In this document: positions 3,663-14,142 of the stretch, piece by piece
Layout of the letters: each line of letters begins with the position of its first letter
How positions within the stretch are numbered: position 1 is the first letter of the stretch
NCBI GenBank assembly: GCA_964554375.1
Contig: CAZKOL010000004.1
Span: 16,535 to 80,534, forward strand
DNA length: 64,000 nucleotides
Reading direction: 5' to 3'
Source: an uncultured Dehalococcoidales bacterium
GTDB taxonomy: Bacteria; Chloroflexota; Dehalococcoidia; GIF9; UBA5629
Program-made: the position numbers and the translations under genes
Notes under the pieces: generated by a model
Database searches by the model: none
Seen by the model: the letters and a program-made list of their open reading frames with translations, nothing else
What the model was told of the DNA's origin: nothing

Positions 3663-3692
3663 AACAGGTCAAGAGTTTAACACAAAAATAAT

Positions 3693-3776
3693 GTCATTGC
3701 GAGGAGCGTAGCGACGAAGCAATCTGTTGTTGCCGCCACTCCAGACACAGGATTGCTTCGCTTCGCTCGCAATGAC
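3693..3776. repeat. Inverted pair of the dispersed palindromic repeat (3693-3724 forward, 3751-3776 inverted) forming an ~85-nt hairpin
   Basis: gtcattgcgaggagcgtagcgacgaagcaatc ... gattgcttcgcttcgctcgcaatgac, with other copies at 23-54, 12441-12459 and 57662-57689. Confidence 0.65.
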
Positions 3777-3922
3777 CGGCTTCTTATCTTGTCACCCAAC
3801 TCGTCAAACCTTATTTCATAGCTGGGGGTGACAAGTGTGACGACTTTGCGGGGGGGGGATAACTGTATGTTTATATTCTTTTTCTATTTACCCGCTAATT
3901 TTTCAAACTCACGTATTCAGTC

Positions 3923-5230
3923 TCAGAGGTTCAGTTCACTCTTGTTAAAACATGCAGCTGCGTCTTTGTGTTTACCCATTGCTTTTAATGCCAAACCTTT
4001 GTGATGCCATGCCTCTCCTGTAGTGGAATCAATTTGTATCACCTTATCAAAACATTTTACTGCATCTTTATAATTATGTAATTTGCTCAGTTCTCTGCCT
4101 TTGTTGTACCACGCATCTATATCGCGAGGATTCAACCTAACCGCCTCATCAAAGCACTTGAGCGCGTCAGAATATTTATTAAGGGCGTCCTGGGCAATAC
4201 CCATGTTATACCAGACAATGGCATTTCGATTATTGAACGTAATGGATTTATCAAAGCATGTCACAGCTTCTCTGAAGTTATTTATATTCATAAGTGCCGT
4301 GCCTTTGCTAAACCACGCTTTGCCAAATTCTGGATCAATATTTATGACATGGTTATAGCATTCAATAGCTTCATCATTCTTCTCAAGATGCCTTAATAGC
4401 TCACCTTTTGCATACCATGCTCCTGTGGATTTCGAATCCAACGCGATAGCTTTATCATAACAGCTCGAAGCTTGGTTGTACTCTCCAATACACATTAGGA
4501 CTGTGCCTTTGTTTACCCAGCCACCAATAAATCTCGGCTCTATCTCAATTACTTTACTAAAGCAGTCAATTGCCTTATCGCACATTTTCTTCTGTAAGAA
4601 TTCTGCTCCATTTGTGTTCTGGATCACAGCTTCTTTTGAATTTAAAACATGATAACCACGGCTGGTTTCGCCGTGTTGTATCTTTTGATCCATAGTTAAA
4701 GCGTCATCGTATAAATAATGTGGGATTTCATAAAGCATTAGTATTGTATGCTTCTTATTACAGTCTCCGTTAATTAATACGAGTATCTCTGAAGCAACTT
4801 TTTTCTCCCTATCTTTAGACGTGAAAAGTATTTTCCCGTCCGGCGTAACGATAGTACAAGTAGCCCATGTTAATGCCCATTCAGAATTGCATTTGTGGCA
4901 TTTCCACCACATATTAATATCATTCCATCTATCGGTAGTAATTTTTATGGGCTTGCTGTCTACCACATCAAAAACATCGATAACAGCATATTTATTTTTA
5001 TTAAATATGTCCGGCATACTTTTATTGATTTTTTCAATGTACTGAATCAATGCACAGGGCGGCTTGAAATGATAGGGCTGATTTTTCATCGGTAATATAT
5101 AGTGATAATTATTTTCATCCAATGCAATCCCAACTTCCCAAACAACTGATTGCTTCGCCTCACAATTGAAACATTGCCTTTCAACTTTGGTAGTGAGCCA
5201 TAGAACACTCTTAAATTTCACCTCGTCCAT
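3923..5230 (-). CDS. Hypothetical protein with an N-terminal Cys-rich (CxxC...CxxC) domain and C-terminal TPR repeats
   Basis: 435 aa encoded in low-GC DNA. Contains CFNCE and CHKCN motifs, and the C-terminal half is made of multiple 34-aa TPR-like repeats (W/F..G.....G.Y..A...Y..A). Confidence 0.6.
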   Translation of the reverse strand: MDEVKFKSVLWLTTKVERQCFNCEAKQSVVWEVGIALDENNYHYILPMKNQPYHFKPPCALIQYIEKINKSMPDIFNKNKYAVIDVFDVVDSKPIKITTDRWNDINMWWKCHKCNSEWALTWATCTIVTPDGKILFTSKDREKKVASEILVLINGDCNKKHTILMLYEIPHYLYDDALTMDQKIQHGETSRGYHVLNSKEAVIQNTNGAEFLQKKMCDKAIDCFSKVIEIEPRFIGGWVNKGTVLMCIGEYNQASSCYDKAIALDSKSTGAWYAKGELLRHLEKNDEAIECYNHVINIDPEFGKAWFSKGTALMNINNFREAVTCFDKSITFNNRNAIVWYNMGIAQDALNKYSDALKCFDEAVRLNPRDIDAWYNKGRELSKLHNYKDAVKCFDKVIQIDSTTGEAWHHKGLALKAMGKHKDAAACFNKSELNL

Positions 5231-5299
5231 GTCCGGTTTCCTCCCCTTTCTAAAACGTGCATAATAAGTCGGTGAGCGACATTATTGGCGCTTCACATT

Positions 5300-6070
5300 C
5301 TATTTCAAAGTATCCATTCGTTTTATGATTTCATTTCCTATCGGAATAATTGATACACTGGCTTCGTCTTTAAAGGAAAGCGAGACGGTGAGGATATAAA
5401 CTTGATATTTTTTAAATATCAGGGTGCTATATGTGTAGTCTTCACCATCGATGTTAGTTGTACCTGTAGCATATGCGCATATATCTCCAATCGATGGATG
5501 ACTAACACTAAATGAAGGATCAGTCATCTGAATACTGTATTCAGTAGCACTTTTACGTAGGTATTTCAGCATATAATCCTTGAATTGTTTGTCGTCTTTA
5601 AGCAGTCCATCATAATAGGCTTGTTCTAAAAATCCACTGGCCTTTATTACAACACTATAAATTACTTGATAAGGTTCATTAGATATAAATAATTGGATTC
5701 CGCTTGCTCCTGTTCCAAGATCTGCAATTTTCTCAGGAGCAAATATCTGGGCAGCGTCTGTTTTGAGGAATCTTGGCGGTAGATTTTCAGCCATGTTTAG
5801 AATATACGGTGCATCGGATAAAGCGATTTTTGAACTTGTGACCGCTGAATTAATAATGATAGCCAATATCACGACGACTGCAATTAATATGATAATTAGT
5901 GCGCGCTTGGATACTATAAACAAGGTCTTTTGCCTCGGAGGTGCAGGCTGATATTCAGCGTCCTCTATTGGCCAAGTTAATTGGACACCGCACTTATCAC
6001 AAATTTTACCCCCCGGCATGACTGGCAGGCCACAACGCGGACATATATAAGTGTGCTGCATTTTATCCAA
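5300..6070 (-). CDS. Zinc-ribbon membrane-anchored protein (N-terminal CPRCG..CDKCG, single TM, extracytoplasmic domain)
   Basis: 256 aa. A zinc ribbon is followed by the hydrophobic segment LIIILIAVVVILAIII, in low-GC DNA. Confidence 0.55.
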   Translation of the reverse strand: MDKMQHTYICPRCGLPVMPGGKICDKCGVQLTWPIEDAEYQPAPPRQKTLFIVSKRALIIILIAVVVILAIIINSAVTSSKIALSDAPYILNMAENLPPRFLKTDAAQIFAPEKIADLGTGASGIQLFISNEPYQVIYSVVIKASGFLEQAYYDGLLKDDKQFKDYMLKYLRKSATEYSIQMTDPSFSVSHPSIGDICAYATGTTNIDGEDYTYSTLIFKKYQVYILTVSLSFKDEASVSIIPIGNEIIKRMDTLK

Positions 6071-6162
6071 TAATAGTTAAAACCTATTGATAATTAATAT
6101 GTCATATACGCGCTATAATCACAGGGAATTGCGCCATCACAAGTATTTTTCCTGTGGGTTCA

Positions 6163-7161
6163 TCATTGTCCCAATTCCGCCGCCTTTTTAAAATCTGCTT
6201 CGGCTTTGCTCTTATCGCCTATTTTATTATATGAAAGCCCACGGTTGTAGTAAGCGTTGGCAAAATTCGGTCTTAATTCTATGGCTTTAGTGCAATCGGC
6301 TATGGAATGGTTGTATTCATTCATAAAAAAATAACTATTCGCACGATTGTAGTATGCTGCTGCATACTTCGGGTTCAGTTCTATTGCTTTAGTGAAATCA
6401 GCTATGGCTTCGTTGCAGCCTCTTAATTTATAGCAAAGTCCACGGTTGTTGAATACTTCTGCATCATTCGGGTTTAGTTCTATTGCTTTGTTTAAATCAA
6501 CTAGAGCTTTGTCACGGTCATTTTGTCGATAATATACATTCCCACGGCCACTATAAGCATCAGCATTATTCGGGTTTAGCGCTATTGCCTTGTTGTAATC
6601 AGAAATAGCTTTGTCATAGTCACCTTTTTTATAATAGGAAAGCCCACGATTGAGGTAAGCGATGGTAGGATCCGGGTCTATCTCTATTGCCTTGGTGAAA
6701 TCAACTATGGCTTTATCATATAGTCCTTCTTTGCCATAGGCCAGCCCACGACCTTGGTAAGCCATGGCATCCTTCGGGTCCAGTCCTATCGATGTAGTAA
6801 AATCAGTAATAGCGTTGTCGTAGTTACCAATGTCACTATAGGCACGCCCGCGCCCGCAGTAAGCCTGGGCATATTTCGGGTCTATATCAATCGCCTTATT
6901 GTAATCAGCTATAGCTTTGTCGTATTCACCTTTGACAGCATAGGAGACACCACGGTAGAAGTAAGCAACAGCATCTTGCGGGTTTAGCGCTATTGCTTTT
7001 GTGTAATTGTCAACGGCCTGGTCCCATTGATTGGGCCCGTTATTTATGCAACTTAAAAGCAACATTACTGTGGCAAGGAAAGCACATACGGTAATTGTAA
7101 TTATTCTCTTGTATTTCATAATTTCCTCTATGTCATGCCTTTTGTTAATTTTGTTGCTCAT
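6163..7161 (-). CDS. TPR-repeat lipoprotein
   Basis: 332 aa. Has a signal peptide with the lipobox LLLSC, followed by about 8 tandem TPR repeats (AYxxRGxxYxxxGxYDKAIxDxxKAIELNP). Its start overlaps the upstream gene by 4 bp (ATGA). Confidence 0.7.
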   Translation of the reverse strand: MSNKINKRHDIEEIMKYKRIITITVCAFLATVMLLLSCINNGPNQWDQAVDNYTKAIALNPQDAVAYFYRGVSYAVKGEYDKAIADYNKAIDIDPKYAQAYCGRGRAYSDIGNYDNAITDFTTSIGLDPKDAMAYQGRGLAYGKEGLYDKAIVDFTKAIEIDPDPTIAYLNRGLSYYKKGDYDKAISDYNKAIALNPNNADAYSGRGNVYYRQNDRDKALVDLNKAIELNPNDAEVFNNRGLCYKLRGCNEAIADFTKAIELNPKYAAAYYNRANSYFFMNEYNHSIADCTKAIELRPNFANAYYNRGLSYNKIGDKSKAEADFKKAAELGQ

Positions 7162-7613
7162 GGTTTATTCTCTTGTCTTGTCATTTCGGATGAGTTTGTT
7201 ATTTGCGCCTGGGTTTTCGATGTCTTTTTATTACTTAGAATAATTGAAATAATCGGGAAAAATAAGGCCAACCAAAGCCAATTTAAACTCCTGCCTTTTT
7301 GATGTAATACCCATCCATTTACAGGTAACATAGCCCAGCACAGAAAGTAGGTTGAAGCATTTTTTGCTGTTCCAACAATGTCGAATCCCAGAAATGTTCT
7401 TAAGAAAGCAATAAAAAAACAAAAACCGAGGAGCCAGAACAACCATGTTAGATTCAAGTGTTTCTTAAACCAGGATGTTTCTACGGTTTTTGATTGTTTA
7501 CTATTTACAACTACGGGTATATTACCTTGGCATCCACAATCATCTGCATAACCCATAAATTCCCTTCCGCACTTCGAGCATGTTCTGTTTATCATCCTAT
7601 TCTTCCTCCCCAT
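7158..7613 (-). CDS. Zinc-ribbon multi-pass membrane protein
   Basis: 151 aa. N-terminal CSKCG...CGC zinc ribbon followed by 3-4 predicted TM helices. Confidence 0.5.
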   Translation of the reverse strand: MGRKNRMINRTCSKCGREFMGYADDCGCQGNIPVVVNSKQSKTVETSWFKKHLNLTWLFWLLGFCFFIAFLRTFLGFDIVGTAKNASTYFLCWAMLPVNGWVLHQKGRSLNWLWLALFFPIISIILSNKKTSKTQAQITNSSEMTRQENKP

Positions 7614-7633
7614 TTGTAGTAAAATGCTGAAGT

Positions 7634-8098
7634 TTATTTGGCTTTACTAAATAGTTTTTTTGGAAAATCAGTATCGCCTATTTTATAAGTTAGTTGGCCA
7701 TCACTTCCTATTACGGCGTATTTCTCTCTGGGTGACCTGGCCACGGTAACCCATTTGCTTTTCTCATTGTCTCCGATAAACATTAGTTTTGCTAACTCCT
7801 GGAAGCTCAGGCAGCATATACCATCTTCACCACATACCAACCCAATAAAGACATCATTAACCCCCTTCTTAACTTCAGTAAGTTCTTTGATATGTTCCGG
7901 TGCAAAAGTGAAACCCCAGGGAGTTAGACGCTTTTTACAATGCTTGATATGGAGATAGACCGTGCTATTGATCAAATAGCCGTTGTTACCTGTAAATAGC
8001 TTTATTGATTCCGGTTTTCCATCTTGAATCAGACGTACCAGTGCAATGCCATGATAAGTTTTATAGTTATCCATTCGCTTTTTGACATAAATTTTCAT
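7634..8098 (-). CDS. Hypothetical protein, possible effector partner of the Z1 ATPase
   Basis: 154 aa ORF whose start overlaps the 3' end of the upstream Z1-ATPase gene by 32 bp. No recognisable motifs. Confidence 0.45.
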   Translation of the reverse strand: MKIYVKKRMDNYKTYHGIALVRLIQDGKPESIKLFTGNNGYLINSTVYLHIKHCKKRLTPWGFTFAPEHIKELTEVKKGVNDVFIGLVCGEDGICCLSFQELAKLMFIGDNEKSKWVTVARSPREKYAVIGSDGQLTYKIGDTDFPKKLFSKAK

Positions 8099-9926
8099 AG
8101 ATTTTAATATTCTCCGCGTACCAATACACTACACGTGATTGGTTCATCGTATTACGTAAAATCATGAAATGATGAAGTGCGCGTGGATATTGCTTTAAAT
8201 CTTTGCCTCCAAATACATTTCTCTGCCTAATTAAATTGTTATGATAATCCGTATCTGCCTCTTGAATTGGCCGTATCTCATGTATTGCGATGTATCCTGC
8301 ATGCGGTTTTGTATTGATTCTAATGAAGTCAATTATGTATTCCGGCAGAACCTCATCGCCGAATTCCTTATTGATTTTTTCTAATTTACCTATCTCATCA
8401 ATGATACGGTCGTGGATTATTTCCTCAATTCTATTTGAATACTTGAAGACTGCGAATAACATCTCGCCTTCTTTTAGAACCACCGCTCTTTTATCTATGC
8501 TACCTGACGCGGCCGGCGTGATTCGATTGTCAGCAAGCCAGATGGGTGCACCTCTTTTTGTCTTTATAGCTTGTAGTGACAGATAATGATATACAAAACA
8601 CCTGTGCCAATCCGCATATAATGTTTTTGGTATAGATAATTCAAATAGATCCAGATATCCCTTCCGATTTCCAAACATTCTTGCTCTTTGTATATAAGTA
8701 TCTTGCTGTATTCGATGCTTGGCATCCCTGGTGAAAAACATGCTTAATAGGTTATTGATTGTGATGCCTCTTGATATCATATTGCCACCGATTATTATCG
8801 TAAATAGAGACGGTGGTTCAGTCGTGATCATGCTGCTTTTTTTCTGGTAATTCATGACCTCAACAAATTTTTTCCCCAGATGGCTGATCACAAATTCTAC
8901 TATCTTATCAGCAGTTTTTTCGCCATATTTATTATTTGCAGTCTCCCAAAGTCGTCTAATGTATTTATCTCGTTGCTGGTCGCCATTGTCATTTAAGATG
9001 CGTAGAACGTCAGATACCACTTTTTTATCTTTGTCATGAGCATCTGTTTTTCCACTTGTGTGGATTAGAAAACAGCATTTAACATCGTCATGAAGAGCTG
9101 TTGTCATTTTATTCTTAATATTTTCATCAATATTGACGTACCCGACATTTACTATAAATCTTAATAATGCATCTATAAGGTATTTAGGATCGTCCCCTGT
9201 ATCCTTCAAAGGTACTAATGAATAATGCAGTGGTACCGTCAGGTCAATGGGAAAGAATTCATTTTTACCCACATAGTATTCGTGTGGTTCAAAGCACAGC
9301 CAGTTCTTTGAAATATTGTCGAAAGTATTATTTAAGTCTATTCGCGCCGGTGTAGCAGTAACGCCTACATAAATTCCATTGTTATCGAGTAGCTTGTTTA
9401 TTTCATCGTTTATCCTGCTTCTCTCATTTTTATTTATTTTTGAATTAGGAGAGGCGAAGTCAGCTTCGTCGTCAATGACAACCTTGCCGCGTTTGTTGCG
9501 CAGATATTCATTTAATTTCTTTAAAACGTTAGCGTTTTTCCTCGAAAATATAATGCATCGGTCGTCAACCATTTTCGGATCAGTAACAGAAATAATATCA
9601 ACCGGTGTCGGATCTATGTCCGAATCTTGAAATCGCTTCAGATTTTGTTCCAATAACGGGATAGTGTCATTTATTAGAATTACTATGTTTTTGTGTCCAA
9701 GGTCTTGCAGTTTCGAGGTTAAAGCGACCATCATTTCAGTTTTACCACTTTGCGGCTCACCATATATTACAAATGACTTGGCACCCGATTCCAAATTACC
9801 TACGGCTTCCATAACCGTTTTTTCGATGTGTTCTGTGTTCTTTCCTCTGTTACGTAATGCGTTGATATGTCTGTCGTATCTATCGGCATCAGAAGTTAGA
9901 TCTTTGAATTTGTTAATATCGAACAT
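8067..9926 (-). CDS. Z1-domain SF2-helicase-like ATPase (defence-island associated)
   Basis: 619 aa. Walker A VIYGEPQSGKTEM, Walker B VVIDDEADFASP, motif III GVTATPARI, and a C-terminal IIIGGNMISRGITINNL segment typical of Z1-domain proteins. AT-rich codon usage. Confidence 0.7.
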   Translation of the reverse strand: MFDINKFKDLTSDADRYDRHINALRNRGKNTEHIEKTVMEAVGNLESGAKSFVIYGEPQSGKTEMMVALTSKLQDLGHKNIVILINDTIPLLEQNLKRFQDSDIDPTPVDIISVTDPKMVDDRCIIFSRKNANVLKKLNEYLRNKRGKVVIDDEADFASPNSKINKNERSRINDEINKLLDNNGIYVGVTATPARIDLNNTFDNISKNWLCFEPHEYYVGKNEFFPIDLTVPLHYSLVPLKDTGDDPKYLIDALLRFIVNVGYVNIDENIKNKMTTALHDDVKCCFLIHTSGKTDAHDKDKKVVSDVLRILNDNGDQQRDKYIRRLWETANNKYGEKTADKIVEFVISHLGKKFVEVMNYQKKSSMITTEPPSLFTIIIGGNMISRGITINNLLSMFFTRDAKHRIQQDTYIQRARMFGNRKGYLDLFELSIPKTLYADWHRCFVYHYLSLQAIKTKRGAPIWLADNRITPAASGSIDKRAVVLKEGEMLFAVFKYSNRIEEIIHDRIIDEIGKLEKINKEFGDEVLPEYIIDFIRINTKPHAGYIAIHEIRPIQEADTDYHNNLIRQRNVFGGKDLKQYPRALHHFMILRNTMNQSRVVYWYAENIKIYENLCQKANG

Positions 9927-10191
9927 TTTGTGCTCTTTGTATAATTAGCTTTCTCGACTTATTATGAATGCAATAACTTCGTAAATTGTCTACACCGATC
10001 TGCGCAGGATTATATAACTCTTTTTATAACTACGCAATACTATTAATGTTCTAAACCCGTCAATACCCTATAAGACCCTGACAAACCCCTTTTTAACAGT
10101 CTAAATATGCTGACGCGGCTGTCAATGGCTATGTATTTACTTGAAAATGCACAACGTGAGGGTAACTACGACCTGGCAGCCCTGGCCGTTC

Positions 10192-10462
10192 CTACATGCC
10201 GTCGAGCGCAGTCACTCCCATGAGGTGGAGCGCCCTGGCCAAGACTATTTGTGCGGCCATCACCAGCTTCAGCCTGGCAGCCGTAAGGTCCGCATCTTCC
10301 GAGATGACGCGGCACTGCTCATGGAAAGGACTGTAAGACCGTGTCCAGGTCCTGGGCGTAGAAAGGCAGGTGATGCAGCTGGTGTGACAGCGCAACTGTC
10401 TCGATTATCTCCAGCATCCTGGCCATGCTGCGTATCAGCGCCAACTGGGGCTCCTCAATCAG
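10192..10462 (-). pseudogene. Duplicated, diverged 3'-terminal fragment of argS (about 90 codons), the left direct repeat of the integration signature
   Basis: Translation [43 protein letters not shown] parallels the ArgS C-terminus [43 protein letters not shown] encoded at 12484-12753. Nucleotide similarity extends across 10085-10462 versus 12226-12753. Confidence 0.75.
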
Positions 10463-10469
10463 GTTTCAT

Positions 10470-12143
10470 CTATTTCACAATCGTTATCTGCCGTGGATCG
10501 GTCGCTATAATGCACGGAGCCCCCTTGTAACGGTCGATTTTCCCCAGAACCCTCACATTATTATCCATATAGGTAAACACGTCAGGGAATTTCTTGAAGT
10601 CCTGGATATTGATGACCACCCTGAAATCAGTTCCGCACTGTCCCTGTTTCCAAGCGTCGTAGTTGTTACAATGTTGATTCGGATTATCAAAATATAGCAA
10701 CATGGGTCGGGTTTCTACGTCCCAGGCACTGGCATATTCAACAACTGACCCTTCGATAGCTACTTCCTTGCCCAAATATTTGTTTATTTTTTCTAAGTCT
10801 AAAGCAGAAATTGTCGTTTCCGGTTTAATAGTTATCTCGGCCATTGTTGGCGCCTTTAGTTTCTCGGCCAATTCGTAGGGCACTTTCCCCCAGTTTGGTG
10901 ATCCATCAGCATAGTTGTTATTAATAATCCTTGTTACGTTGCTTCCATCTGCATCCATGGTATATATTTGCCATGCGTTTTTAAAGCGAATACCGAAATC
11001 CAATGGTTTACCATCTCTATCCGATACGAATGCTATCTTTTTGCCATCGGGTGACCATTCCGACCAATCGTTAAACTGACCATGTCCACCAATATTTTGC
11101 GCTTGAGTTAAATTTATTTGATGACTTCCATCAGAATTCATAACATAAATATCGTAAATTTCGGTATTTACATCTTTTTTAGAACTTAGGTAGGCTATTT
11201 TGCTGTCATCAGGAGAGTATGCTCCACCTCCGTCCCAGGTGACATATTGCGATGTCAAAGTTTTAATGCTTTTCATCAGTGGATTTGAATTTGGATCGAA
11301 CAATGACGTACTAGTGCGTGCTGGTTTGAGAACCAATCTGTTACCTGTATATGACCACGATTCACCGGAATAGTTGTCTGGAGTGGAGTTGAAAATAATC
11401 TGCTTGACCATATCGTAATCTATGTCAATTTCCCACAAACTATATCCACCATCGCCCAAAGTATTACATATCAGCTTTTTCCCATCACGTGACCATTTTG
11501 GCCATGAATACGCTTCTGGCGTTGTAGTAATTTTCAAGAATTTGGTTCCCTCTGCATTCATAACCCAAATGTGACCGTAATTTGAATGTGTAGAACAAAA
11601 TACAATCATAGTGCCATCCGGTGACCAACTGGGCATGCTATCCCATTTAAGACTGCCAGTGAGATTCTTGACATTTCCACCATCTACATCCATAACGAAA
11701 ATATCCCAGTTGTTATCTCCTTTATTATCAGGTTCCCATTTTCTGTCTGAGACGAATAATATCTTTTTCCCATCAGGTGACAAACTGGGTATTAAATCCA
11801 TATCTGAGTTATTTGTTAAGTTCACCTGGTTATTACCGTCTGGATCCATGATATAGATTTCATAATTATTCCCAGATAACACATTCCAGCCTTTTGCCCA
11901 GTCCCACTGCCACGTGGCATCGCGCAACGACCAGAATACGATTTTCTCCTGATATTCTGGATTCTGTGGCAAAGCGGCCGGTTTAGTCAGAGTCTTATTA
12001 TCAACCTCGGTCGGGGATTGGGGTTTTATTGATTGATTATCAACAACAACCGGTAGGGGAGTCTTAATACCAGGTGTACAACTTACAAAAATTGTAATAA
12101 TAACCAATAATGAAACGGCTATAACGACTGACATTTTAACCAT
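10470..12143 (-). CDS. TolB-like beta-propeller (PD40-repeat) lipoprotein with an uncharacterised C-terminal domain
   Basis: 557 aa. Signal peptide/lipobox FVSC, a Pro/Gln-rich linker, repeated SPDG/SWSPDGK PD40 motifs, and low GC content. Confidence 0.7.
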   Translation of the reverse strand: MVKMSVVIAVSLLVIITIFVSCTPGIKTPLPVVVDNQSIKPQSPTEVDNKTLTKPAALPQNPEYQEKIVFWSLRDATWQWDWAKGWNVLSGNNYEIYIMDPDGNNQVNLTNNSDMDLIPSLSPDGKKILFVSDRKWEPDNKGDNNWDIFVMDVDGGNVKNLTGSLKWDSMPSWSPDGTMIVFCSTHSNYGHIWVMNAEGTKFLKITTTPEAYSWPKWSRDGKKLICNTLGDGGYSLWEIDIDYDMVKQIIFNSTPDNYSGESWSYTGNRLVLKPARTSTSLFDPNSNPLMKSIKTLTSQYVTWDGGGAYSPDDSKIAYLSSKKDVNTEIYDIYVMNSDGSHQINLTQAQNIGGHGQFNDWSEWSPDGKKIAFVSDRDGKPLDFGIRFKNAWQIYTMDADGSNVTRIINNNYADGSPNWGKVPYELAEKLKAPTMAEITIKPETTISALDLEKINKYLGKEVAIEGSVVEYASAWDVETRPMLLYFDNPNQHCNNYDAWKQGQCGTDFRVVINIQDFKKFPDVFTYMDNNVRVLGKIDRYKGAPCIIATDPRQITIVK

Positions 12144-12282
12144 TCTTCTGCCTCCATAGATCTCCGATACTATAGTTTAGGTTATCCGTCATAACAATGC
12201 CACTATGCGAGTGCCCCACCCGACCCTGACAAAACCCCCTTTTTTAATGCGCACAAATGTACTATTATGGTAGTCAACGGCC

Positions 12283-12483: not shown

Positions 12484-14142
12484 CTACATCTTATCCGGCG
12501 CGGTCATGCCCATCAGGTGTAGCGTCCTGGCCAGGACTATTCTTGCGGCCAGTACGAGCTTCAGCCGGGCGGCGGTCAGGTCCGCGTCTTCCGAGATGAC
12601 GCGGCACTGTTTATAGAAGGAATGAAAGACCGTGGCCAGGTCCTGGGCGTAGAAGGTCAGGTGATGGGGCTGGTGTGACAGCGCGACGGTCTCGATGATC
12701 TCAGGCATTTTGGCCATGCTGCGTATCAGGGTCAACTCCGGCTCCTCAATCAGCAGGCTTGTATCGCCGTTGGCGAAGTCGATCCCTTTCTCCGCTGCGT
12801 TGCGCAGGATGCTGCTGATGCGCGCGTGCGCGTACTGCACATAATAGACCGGGTTGTCGGCGGACTGCTTTATGGCCAGCTCCAGGTCGAAGTCCATCTG
12901 GCTATCAGCCGAGCGCGACAGGAAAACGAAGCGGCAGGCATCGGGGCCGACCTCCTCCAGCAGCTCGCGCAGTGTGATGATATCGCCGCTCCTTTTGGAG
13001 ATTTTAACCGCCTCTTTGCCGCGCCTCAGTGTGACAAGCTGGCAGATGATGATCTCGAGCCTTTCGGAGTCGATGCCCAGCGCTCCCAGCACTACCTTCA
13101 TCCGCTGGACATGGCCCTGGTGATCAGCCCCCCAGATGTCGATGACATTGTCGAACTTCCTCACGGCGAACTTGTCGTAGTGATATGCAATATCGGAGGC
13201 AAAATAGGTGGGTGTACCATCGGAGCGCACCAGGACATTATCCTTGTCCTCTCCCAGGGTGGAGGAGGTGAACCAGGTGGCATTCTCCCTTTCTGCTATA
13301 TAGCCACCGTCCCTCAGCATGCGCATCGTGTCGTCATACCGGCCGCTCTTGAACAGGCTTTGCTCGCTGAACCACTCATTGAAGGTTACGCCCAGCGTTT
13401 CAAGGTCCTGCCTGATCTGCTGCATCTCCCTCTCTATCCCGATCTGACCGATCTCCGCCACGGCGCGCTCCTCAGGCAGGCCGGCGTATTTATCTCCGTA
13501 TTGCTTAACGAGTTCCCTGGCCAGGTCTACGAGATAGCTGCCGTGATACCCGTTGGCCGGTACCTCGACCTCCTTTCCCAGGGCCTGCAGGTAGCGTGCA
13601 TACAATGACCGGTGGAAAGCCTCGAGCTGGCTGCCGGCATCATTTATGTAATATTCCGTTGAAACCCTGTAGCCGGCCGCTTTAAGGACGTTGGCCAGCG
13701 TGCTGCCCAGCACGGCCCCCCGCCCATGTCCCACGTGAAGGGGCCCGGTGGGATTTCCGCTGACGAACTCAATCTGGATGCTTTTGTCCTCAAGTTGTAT
13801 GTTGCCGTAAGCCTCGCCTGCCCGGCAGATGGCGTCCACCTGGCGGTTCAGCCATTTTTTACTCAGCGTAAAGTTGATAAACCCCGGCGGCGCCGCAGCA
13901 ACCTTCTCTAAATCGCTGTCCGGTGACATGTGATCAACTATGGCAGCGGCCACGTCCATGGGCTTCATCCCGGTCAGCCGCGCCAGCTTGAGTGGCAGGC
14001 TGCTGGCATAGTCTCCGTGTTCCGGCCTGGCAGGCCTCTCGATTGTTATCTCCGGCAGGCTGGAGTTACCCACCAGGCCTTTTTCGCCAGCCATGGCAAA
14101 GGCCTGCTCCAGCATTTCAGCCAGCCGTTTTTTAAAAATCAT
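12484..14142 (-). CDS. argS: Arginine--tRNA ligase
   Basis: 552 aa class I aaRS with HVGHGRG (HIGH) and KISKRSG (KMSKS) motifs, plus an N-terminal Arg-tRNA-synthetase add-on domain. Confidence 0.92.

Follow-up and report, generated by a model that had tools for sequence, protein, structure and literature searches.

A helicase-like motor and a small partner with a predicted restriction-endonuclease-like fold form a conserved gene pair lacking a linked methyltransferase in a Dehalococcoidales locus

What might a helicase-like ATPase do when it is encoded together with a small protein of no named family and with no DNA methyltransferase beside it? The question is raised by a 64,000-nt stretch from an uncultured Dehalococcoidales bacterium (contig CAZKOL010000004.1; hereafter, the window), in which a gene for a 619-aa motor protein is followed by a short partner gene. 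An earlier note, made from the sequence alone, had read the two as a candidate ATPase-plus-effector defence module, an interpretation that is supported in part by the analysis described here. The pair belongs to a family that usually resembles a three-gene restriction-modification (R-M) operon and, on balance, we lean towards reading the window pair as a two-gene derivative of that family which acts independently of a methyltransferase, probably against phages or plasmids. It may represent an undescribed two-gene anti-phage module; in the literature, no paper describing the motor-partner pairing was found.

The motor gene (positions 8067-9926) lies on the minus strand, like every feature of the pair given below. 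Both open reading frames (ORFs; 619 and 154 aa) were confirmed where the note had placed them, and the sequences GEPQSGKT, DDEAD, TATP and GGNMISRGITINNL were all located in the motor. Its N-core is a RecA-like DEAD/ResIII domain (Pfam ResIII, aa 43-195; 9342-9800) that includes TATP. The Walker A motif PQSGKT (aa 58-63; nt 9738-9761), a Gly-to-Gln variant, and the Walker B motif DDEAD (aa 152-156; nt 9459-9473) are invariant across 15 homologs, as is a short QxxR motif VI (Q413-R-A-R416), which aligns with QHSR of N.NgoAVII. The motor further carries an H/H motif, of which H289 is invariant and H297 at least 90% conserved; the spacing of eight residues is that of H282/H290 in H.CglI, and both histidines align with histidines of N.NgoAVII. 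The Walker A/DDEAD feature and the motor properties of CglI/NgoAVII-type systems have been described (PMC5861437).

The relationship to N.NgoAVII emerged from a tblastn search against plasmid and chromosome records, which returned a match in Neisseria gonorrhoeae. The identity of this locus as NgoAVII is verified by its R gene, since the gene upstream of the match encodes R.NgoAVII (PDB 4RCT, E = 4e-240); the matched protein is the N/H subunit (629 aa), and a comparison of its C-terminal domain with solved structures hit the H.CglI C-domain (6F1S, E = 1e-12). Motor and N.NgoAVII share 27% identity over 426 aa (BLASTP, E = 1e-28), and the family profile of the motor aligned to N.NgoAVII with an hhalign probability of 99.8% (E = 7e-29). 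The aligned motifs comprise PQSGKT (VQSGKT in N.NgoAVII), DDEAD, TATP, H/H, GGN..RG.TI and QxxR. By these sequence and profile comparisons, the motor is a homolog of the CglI/NgoAVII H/N subunit. Its C-terminal domain (aa 445-619; 8070-8594), delineated from the conservation profile, is conserved within the family and has no detectable relative: hhalign found no similarity to the NgoAVII/CglI C-domain (probability 0.1%), neither the window motor nor the family profile matched 6F1S in sequence and profile comparison, and a sequence search of the PDB with this domain gave no match.

Membership of the window pair in the CglI/NgoAVII-type R-M systems was considered and rejected, as it has neither a PLD-B3 R subunit nor a methyltransferase and the methyltransferase of its family is of a different class. 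R.NgoAVII is a 358-aa protein combining a PLD nuclease domain with a B3-like DNA-binding domain, whereas the window partner is a 146-aa, single-domain protein of predicted restriction-endonuclease fold without a Pfam match. Gene order is R then H in NgoAVII and motor then partner in the window. Systems of the CglI/NgoAVII type are further characterized by an R2H2 complex with ATP-dependent translocation and DNA cleavage. CglI and NgoAVII have an adjacent cognate methyltransferase of the cytosine-5 type; the window family has an N6/N4 amino-methyltransferase instead, and the window's clade has none. A second candidate, Mza, was suggested by PADLOC, which matched the motor to the generic Helicase_II model and partially to MzaC. 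The PADLOC match to MzaC is local (aa 372-433 only), the NCBIfam model for MzaC scored 38.7 bits against a cut-off of 1500, MzaC proteins measure 800-950 aa as compared to 619 aa for the motor, and no MutL/GHKL or other Mza genes were found in the window or among the neighbors of the pair. Mza membership was thus rejected as well.

The longest ORF of the partner gene (7634-8098) encodes 154 aa and would start 32 bp inside the motor gene, as the note had proposed. This start was not borne out: whether 88% or 33-37% identical, homologs of the partner start at the residue that corresponds to Met9, and the conserved partner gene therefore spans 7634-8074, encodes 146 aa (a form also on record) and overlaps the motor gene by 8 nt (8067-8074). 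The overlap has the identical length in four related loci (L009, L011, L012 and L098). The eight extra in-frame codons of the longest ORF (MKIYVKKR; 8075-8098) are not conserved in homologs and probably untranslated. What the note had proposed as a partner is hence a real and conserved gene, in a shorter form. An exhaustive profile search retrieved 947 cluster representatives at E ≤ 1e-3 (560 at ≤ 1e-10), mostly stand-alone proteins of ~145 aa; those with names are all called 'hypothetical protein', and none has a Pfam domain. Scans of the partner against Pfam, NCBIfam and PADLOC gave no match, PHROG 28860 (unknown function) was the sole library match, and no solved structure was similar at the sequence level. 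Some family members are larger: P0231, P0260 and P0269 (331-387 aa) combine the endonuclease-fold domain with an FtsK-gamma winged-helix DNA-binding domain at the C-terminus (E = 1e-16 to 5e-21), and P0132, P0146, P0185, P0219, P0221 and P0257 (430-590 aa) bear extensions without a Pfam match.

An AlphaFold2 model of the partner, based on a 105-sequence alignment, scored 94.6 in the predicted local distance difference test (pLDDT) and 0.89 in predicted template modelling (pTM). Its topology is α1-β-β-β-β-α2-β-β-α3 followed by a C-terminal hairpin, and it contains the α-β-β-β-α-β core typical of restriction endonucleases. In this model, the partner has a restriction-endonuclease (PD-(D/E)xK-like) fold, one of the nuclease folds that the note had envisaged, with a non-canonical active-site region. 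Mapped by secondary-structure register rather than by residue-level superposition, the position expected to hold the β2 Asp is Y33 (Tyr in 61 and Phe in 18 of 79 partners) and that expected to hold the β3 Glu is residue 42 (Tyr in 58, Phe in 9, Gln in 6, His in 3); K44, kept in 77/79, is the sole remaining residue of the canonical catalytic motif. Because the nuclease fold comes without the canonical catalytic acids, the role of the partner as an effector nuclease, as proposed in the note, is unproven. Two substitutes for the canonical site were considered. A metal-independent Tyr/His/Lys triad of the tRNA-splicing-endonuclease type was rejected as unlikely, since 18/79 partners have Phe in place of Y33 and 15/79 have Gln in place of H8; D84..E93-x-K95 as a relocated motif was rejected as well, K95 being poorly conserved and located in a helix.

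Among known PD-(D/E)xK proteins, Hjc, RecU, I-Ssp6803I and PvuII differ from the partner at these same positions, their β2 Asp corresponding to Tyr/Phe and their β3 Glu to Tyr/Phe/His/Gln. The partner, unlike them, is paired with a motor. A translocase and an Hjc/RecU-like junction-binding protein could in principle constitute a DNA repair or recombination module acting on branched DNA. We consider such a role very improbable: the catalytic acids of the resolvases are missing in the partner, the only characterized relatives of the motor are restriction enzymes, the family is linked to DNA methyltransferases, and its distribution is patchy and island-like, with low-GC, prophage and integrase contexts.

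We surveyed 80 species-level genomes or loci, with 79 pairs or partners entering the counts of overlaps and residues. The partner lies directly downstream of the motor, on the same strand, in 77/80 genomes, so that the pair is co-conserved, a point on which the note had staked its proposal. The tight overlap between the two genes is likewise family-wide (1-17 nt in 69/79 pairs). Partner genes are split into two ORFs in L046 and L048 and missing in L083, L084 and L087.

Clustering of all ORFs of the family loci revealed a third protein of ~430 aa in 68/80 loci, a DNA amino-methyltransferase (Pfam N6_N4_Mtase, PF01555; motifs FxGxG and SPPY). Its gene is adjacent to the pair (within 200 nt) in 59 of these loci (28 upstream and 24 downstream on the same strand, 7 downstream on the opposite strand) and further away in the other nine. 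The divergence of the methyltransferase tracks that of the motor less well (r = 0.51). Because the methyltransferase is present in 68/80 loci and variable in position, the canonical system is, judged by gene content, a three-gene R-M-like operon in which the motor-partner core is fixed and the methyltransferase moves. The methyltransferase context that the note had expected from relatives is thus real, albeit with an N6/N4 amino-methyltransferase and not a cytosine-5 enzyme. In L048 (3764-5047), a methyltransferase near the pair is a fusion of N6_N4_Mtase with a DCD (Dev_Cell_Death) domain at the N-terminus.

At the window locus, the note had seen no methyltransferase, and rightly so: none is present among Pfam-annotated genes within ~9 kb either side of the pair, and no homolog of the family's usual methyltransferase is encoded anywhere in the 64 kb. 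In a neighbor-joining tree of motors, the window clusters with L009, L011, L012, L013 and L015, and all methyltransferase-linked loci fall elsewhere. To this set we added L098-L102, the closest metagenomic homologs (51-71% identical), as a set for genomic context. By Pfam annotation and a methyltransferase hidden Markov model, with an additional motif scan for L098-L100, no methyltransferase was found at the window, L009, L013, L098, L099, L100, L101 or L102; L011 and L012 are too heavily truncated to judge. Since the family is methyltransferase-linked, the two-gene state is derived, and the window's clade is accordingly best described, on comparative grounds, as a derived, methyltransferase-less form. 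Motor and partner are the only genes common to the 12 loci of the methyltransferase-less clade, in agreement with the two-gene module of the note, and a scan for a third conserved gene returned only antisense shadow ORFs. At the edge of the clade, L015 has an EcoRI-type methyltransferase 13 nt downstream of the pair, with a very divergent partner. There, the gene for this EcoRI-family adenine methyltransferase (E = 1e-122) and a tandem of two Type IV restriction genes of the GmrSD type (DUF262-HNH) come after the pair, in a compact defence island (8371-12145).

The clade members reside in unrelated contexts. L009 lies with an integrase fragment, an OLD-like ATPase and excisionase-type HTH genes, L098 in a tgt/ubiA housekeeping flank, and L101 between nusB/acpP and mfd. 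L099 adjoins an OLD-TOPRIM plus UvrD (Gabija-like) pair and an ImmA/HTH pair, and L100 is inside a prophage, next to phage capsid and portal (head) genes. L102 immediately follows ruvC-ruvA (3679-7233), the place usually held by ruvB, which is curious for a translocase and an Hjc-like protein; this contig breaks off within the partner gene.

These contexts bear on whether the pair could belong to a conventional R-M system whose locus is split, the two genes encoding a working restriction enzyme and the gene for the cognate methyltransferase lying at another place in the genome. Such an arrangement would fit a family that is overwhelmingly methyltransferase-linked and in which the position of the methyltransferase is already loose (upstream, downstream, on the opposite strand or, in nine loci, several kb off), and inspection of the window genome was limited to 64 kb. 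Yet no inspected clade locus has an adjacent methyltransferase despite the differing contexts, a restriction gene that moves without its methylase, as the prophage copy in L100 would have done, would harm a new host, and the partners of the clade carry specific substitutions at otherwise conserved positions. We therefore regard a split locus as improbable.

The substitutions in question concern two sites. In helix 1, 67/68 methyltransferase-linked members have an acidic residue in at least one position of an E-x-E pair, and residue 40 is Gly in 66/79 partners overall. In every methyltransferase-less locus with adequate flanks, the acidic pair is wholly or partly lost, and L101 alone among these loci retains G40. 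The helix-1 pair and residue 40 read N/K and Y in the window, N/R and Y in L009, D/S and C in L013, N/T and Y in L098, D/S and H in L099, K/E and F in L100, D/T and G in L101, and N/T and C in L102. The phylogenetically separate L017 lineage, which independently lacks the methyltransferase, has T/S and V. The pattern suggests a part for the helix-1 pair and residue 40 in the dependence on a methyltransferase, and a mode of action of the two-gene clade that is not that of the canonical form.

The same coincidence, in two lineages (the window clade and L017), would also be expected if the pair were a disarmed relic, its partner inactivated after methyltransferase loss and the pair devoid of restriction activity, either neutral or with an unrelated DNA-binding or translocase role; decay does occur in the family, as seen from the split and missing partners mentioned above. 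However, non-synonymous divergence (dN) in the clade is 0.10-0.50 while synonymous divergence (dS) is saturated for both genes, so that motor and partner are under purifying selection. Both ORFs are intact in at least 10 divergent clade members (50-83% aa identity), which keep all motor motifs, most conserved partner residues (K44, R49, W53, C81, D84, E93, R113, K131) and the 8-nt overlap, and the module has reached many sites that are unrelated to one another. A relic thus appears unlikely, to about the same degree as a split locus.

If the pair is instead an active two-gene derivative, as we favor, an adjacent N6/N4 methyltransferase would protect the host in most lineages, yielding the three-gene R-M-like system. 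The window's clade has the two genes only and moves from one unrelated position to another in genomes, a prophage and a defence island among them; its partner has lost the acidic pair of helix 1 and usually Gly40. Motor and partner would presumably form a complex that targets DNA in defence of the host, the partner perhaps cleaving it. Because the clade would act without a linked methylase, its discrimination of self from non-self would have to differ from classical R-M, e.g. by depending on DNA modification or DNA structure. The Type IV system McrBC has the same architecture as the window's clade (an NTPase motor gene, then a small gene for a partner with a restriction-endonuclease fold, and no cognate methyltransferase), a functional analogy without homology.

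Several points weigh against this reading. Neither motor nor partner matches a validated defence-system model. The canonical D...(D/E)xK acids were not found in the partner, whose nuclease active site cannot be named. By Pfam annotation, the pair's own neighbors in the window are TPR and zinc-ribbon membrane proteins and not a defence island, so that the defence context claimed in the note holds for some relatives (the Gabija-like OLD and UvrD pair, the prophage, the integrase fragment) and not for the window itself. The absence of the methyltransferase covers linked loci, and an unlinked one elsewhere in clade genomes is possible. Finally, the correlation between methyltransferase loss and partner substitutions reflects about two to three independent evolutionary events and is therefore a lead, not a statistic.

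The family is large (roughly 2,900 homologs), widespread and unannotated. Its canonical trio is represented in cultured strains such as Bradyrhizobium cajani 1010, Nitratireductor indicus C115, Chryseobacterium taihuense and Asticcacaulis benevestitus DSM 16100. It offers a natural experiment in which a three-gene form with a methyltransferase can be set against a derived two-gene clade with diagnostic partner substitutions. The contrast could show in what way the self/non-self logic of an R-M system is altered, and which residues are important in a non-canonical restriction-endonuclease fold. Should the clade prove active, the catalogues of defence finders would gain a new system.

As to its setting, the pair lies within an island of low GC content (0.37-0.44, roughly 3.7-12.2 kb; genome ~0.57) that is flanked by trpS and argS. 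Upstream of the motor, an AT-rich intergenic region (9927-10189) is the likely promoter region; it contains a weak sigma-70-like match (TTGACA-16-TAGACT at 10125-10098), promoter-like matches not exceeding shuffled expectation. The island (~3700-12200) also carries same-strand zinc-ribbon/transmembrane and TPR genes (7158-7613, 6163-7161, 5300-6070 and 3923-5230), none of which is conserved beside the pair in other genomes. Scans of the window for tRNAs and Rfam families gave no matches. The last ~270 bp of argS are present twice: 2 kb downstream of the 3′ end of the intact gene there is a frameshifted, degenerate copy (10190-10460, minus strand) that is ~85-89% identical to 12484-12760. Between the copies is a low-GC segment with a gene for a secreted PD40/Tricorn-like β-propeller (10470-12143), and the arrangement resembles what would remain after an element had inserted at the 3′ end of argS and restored the gene.
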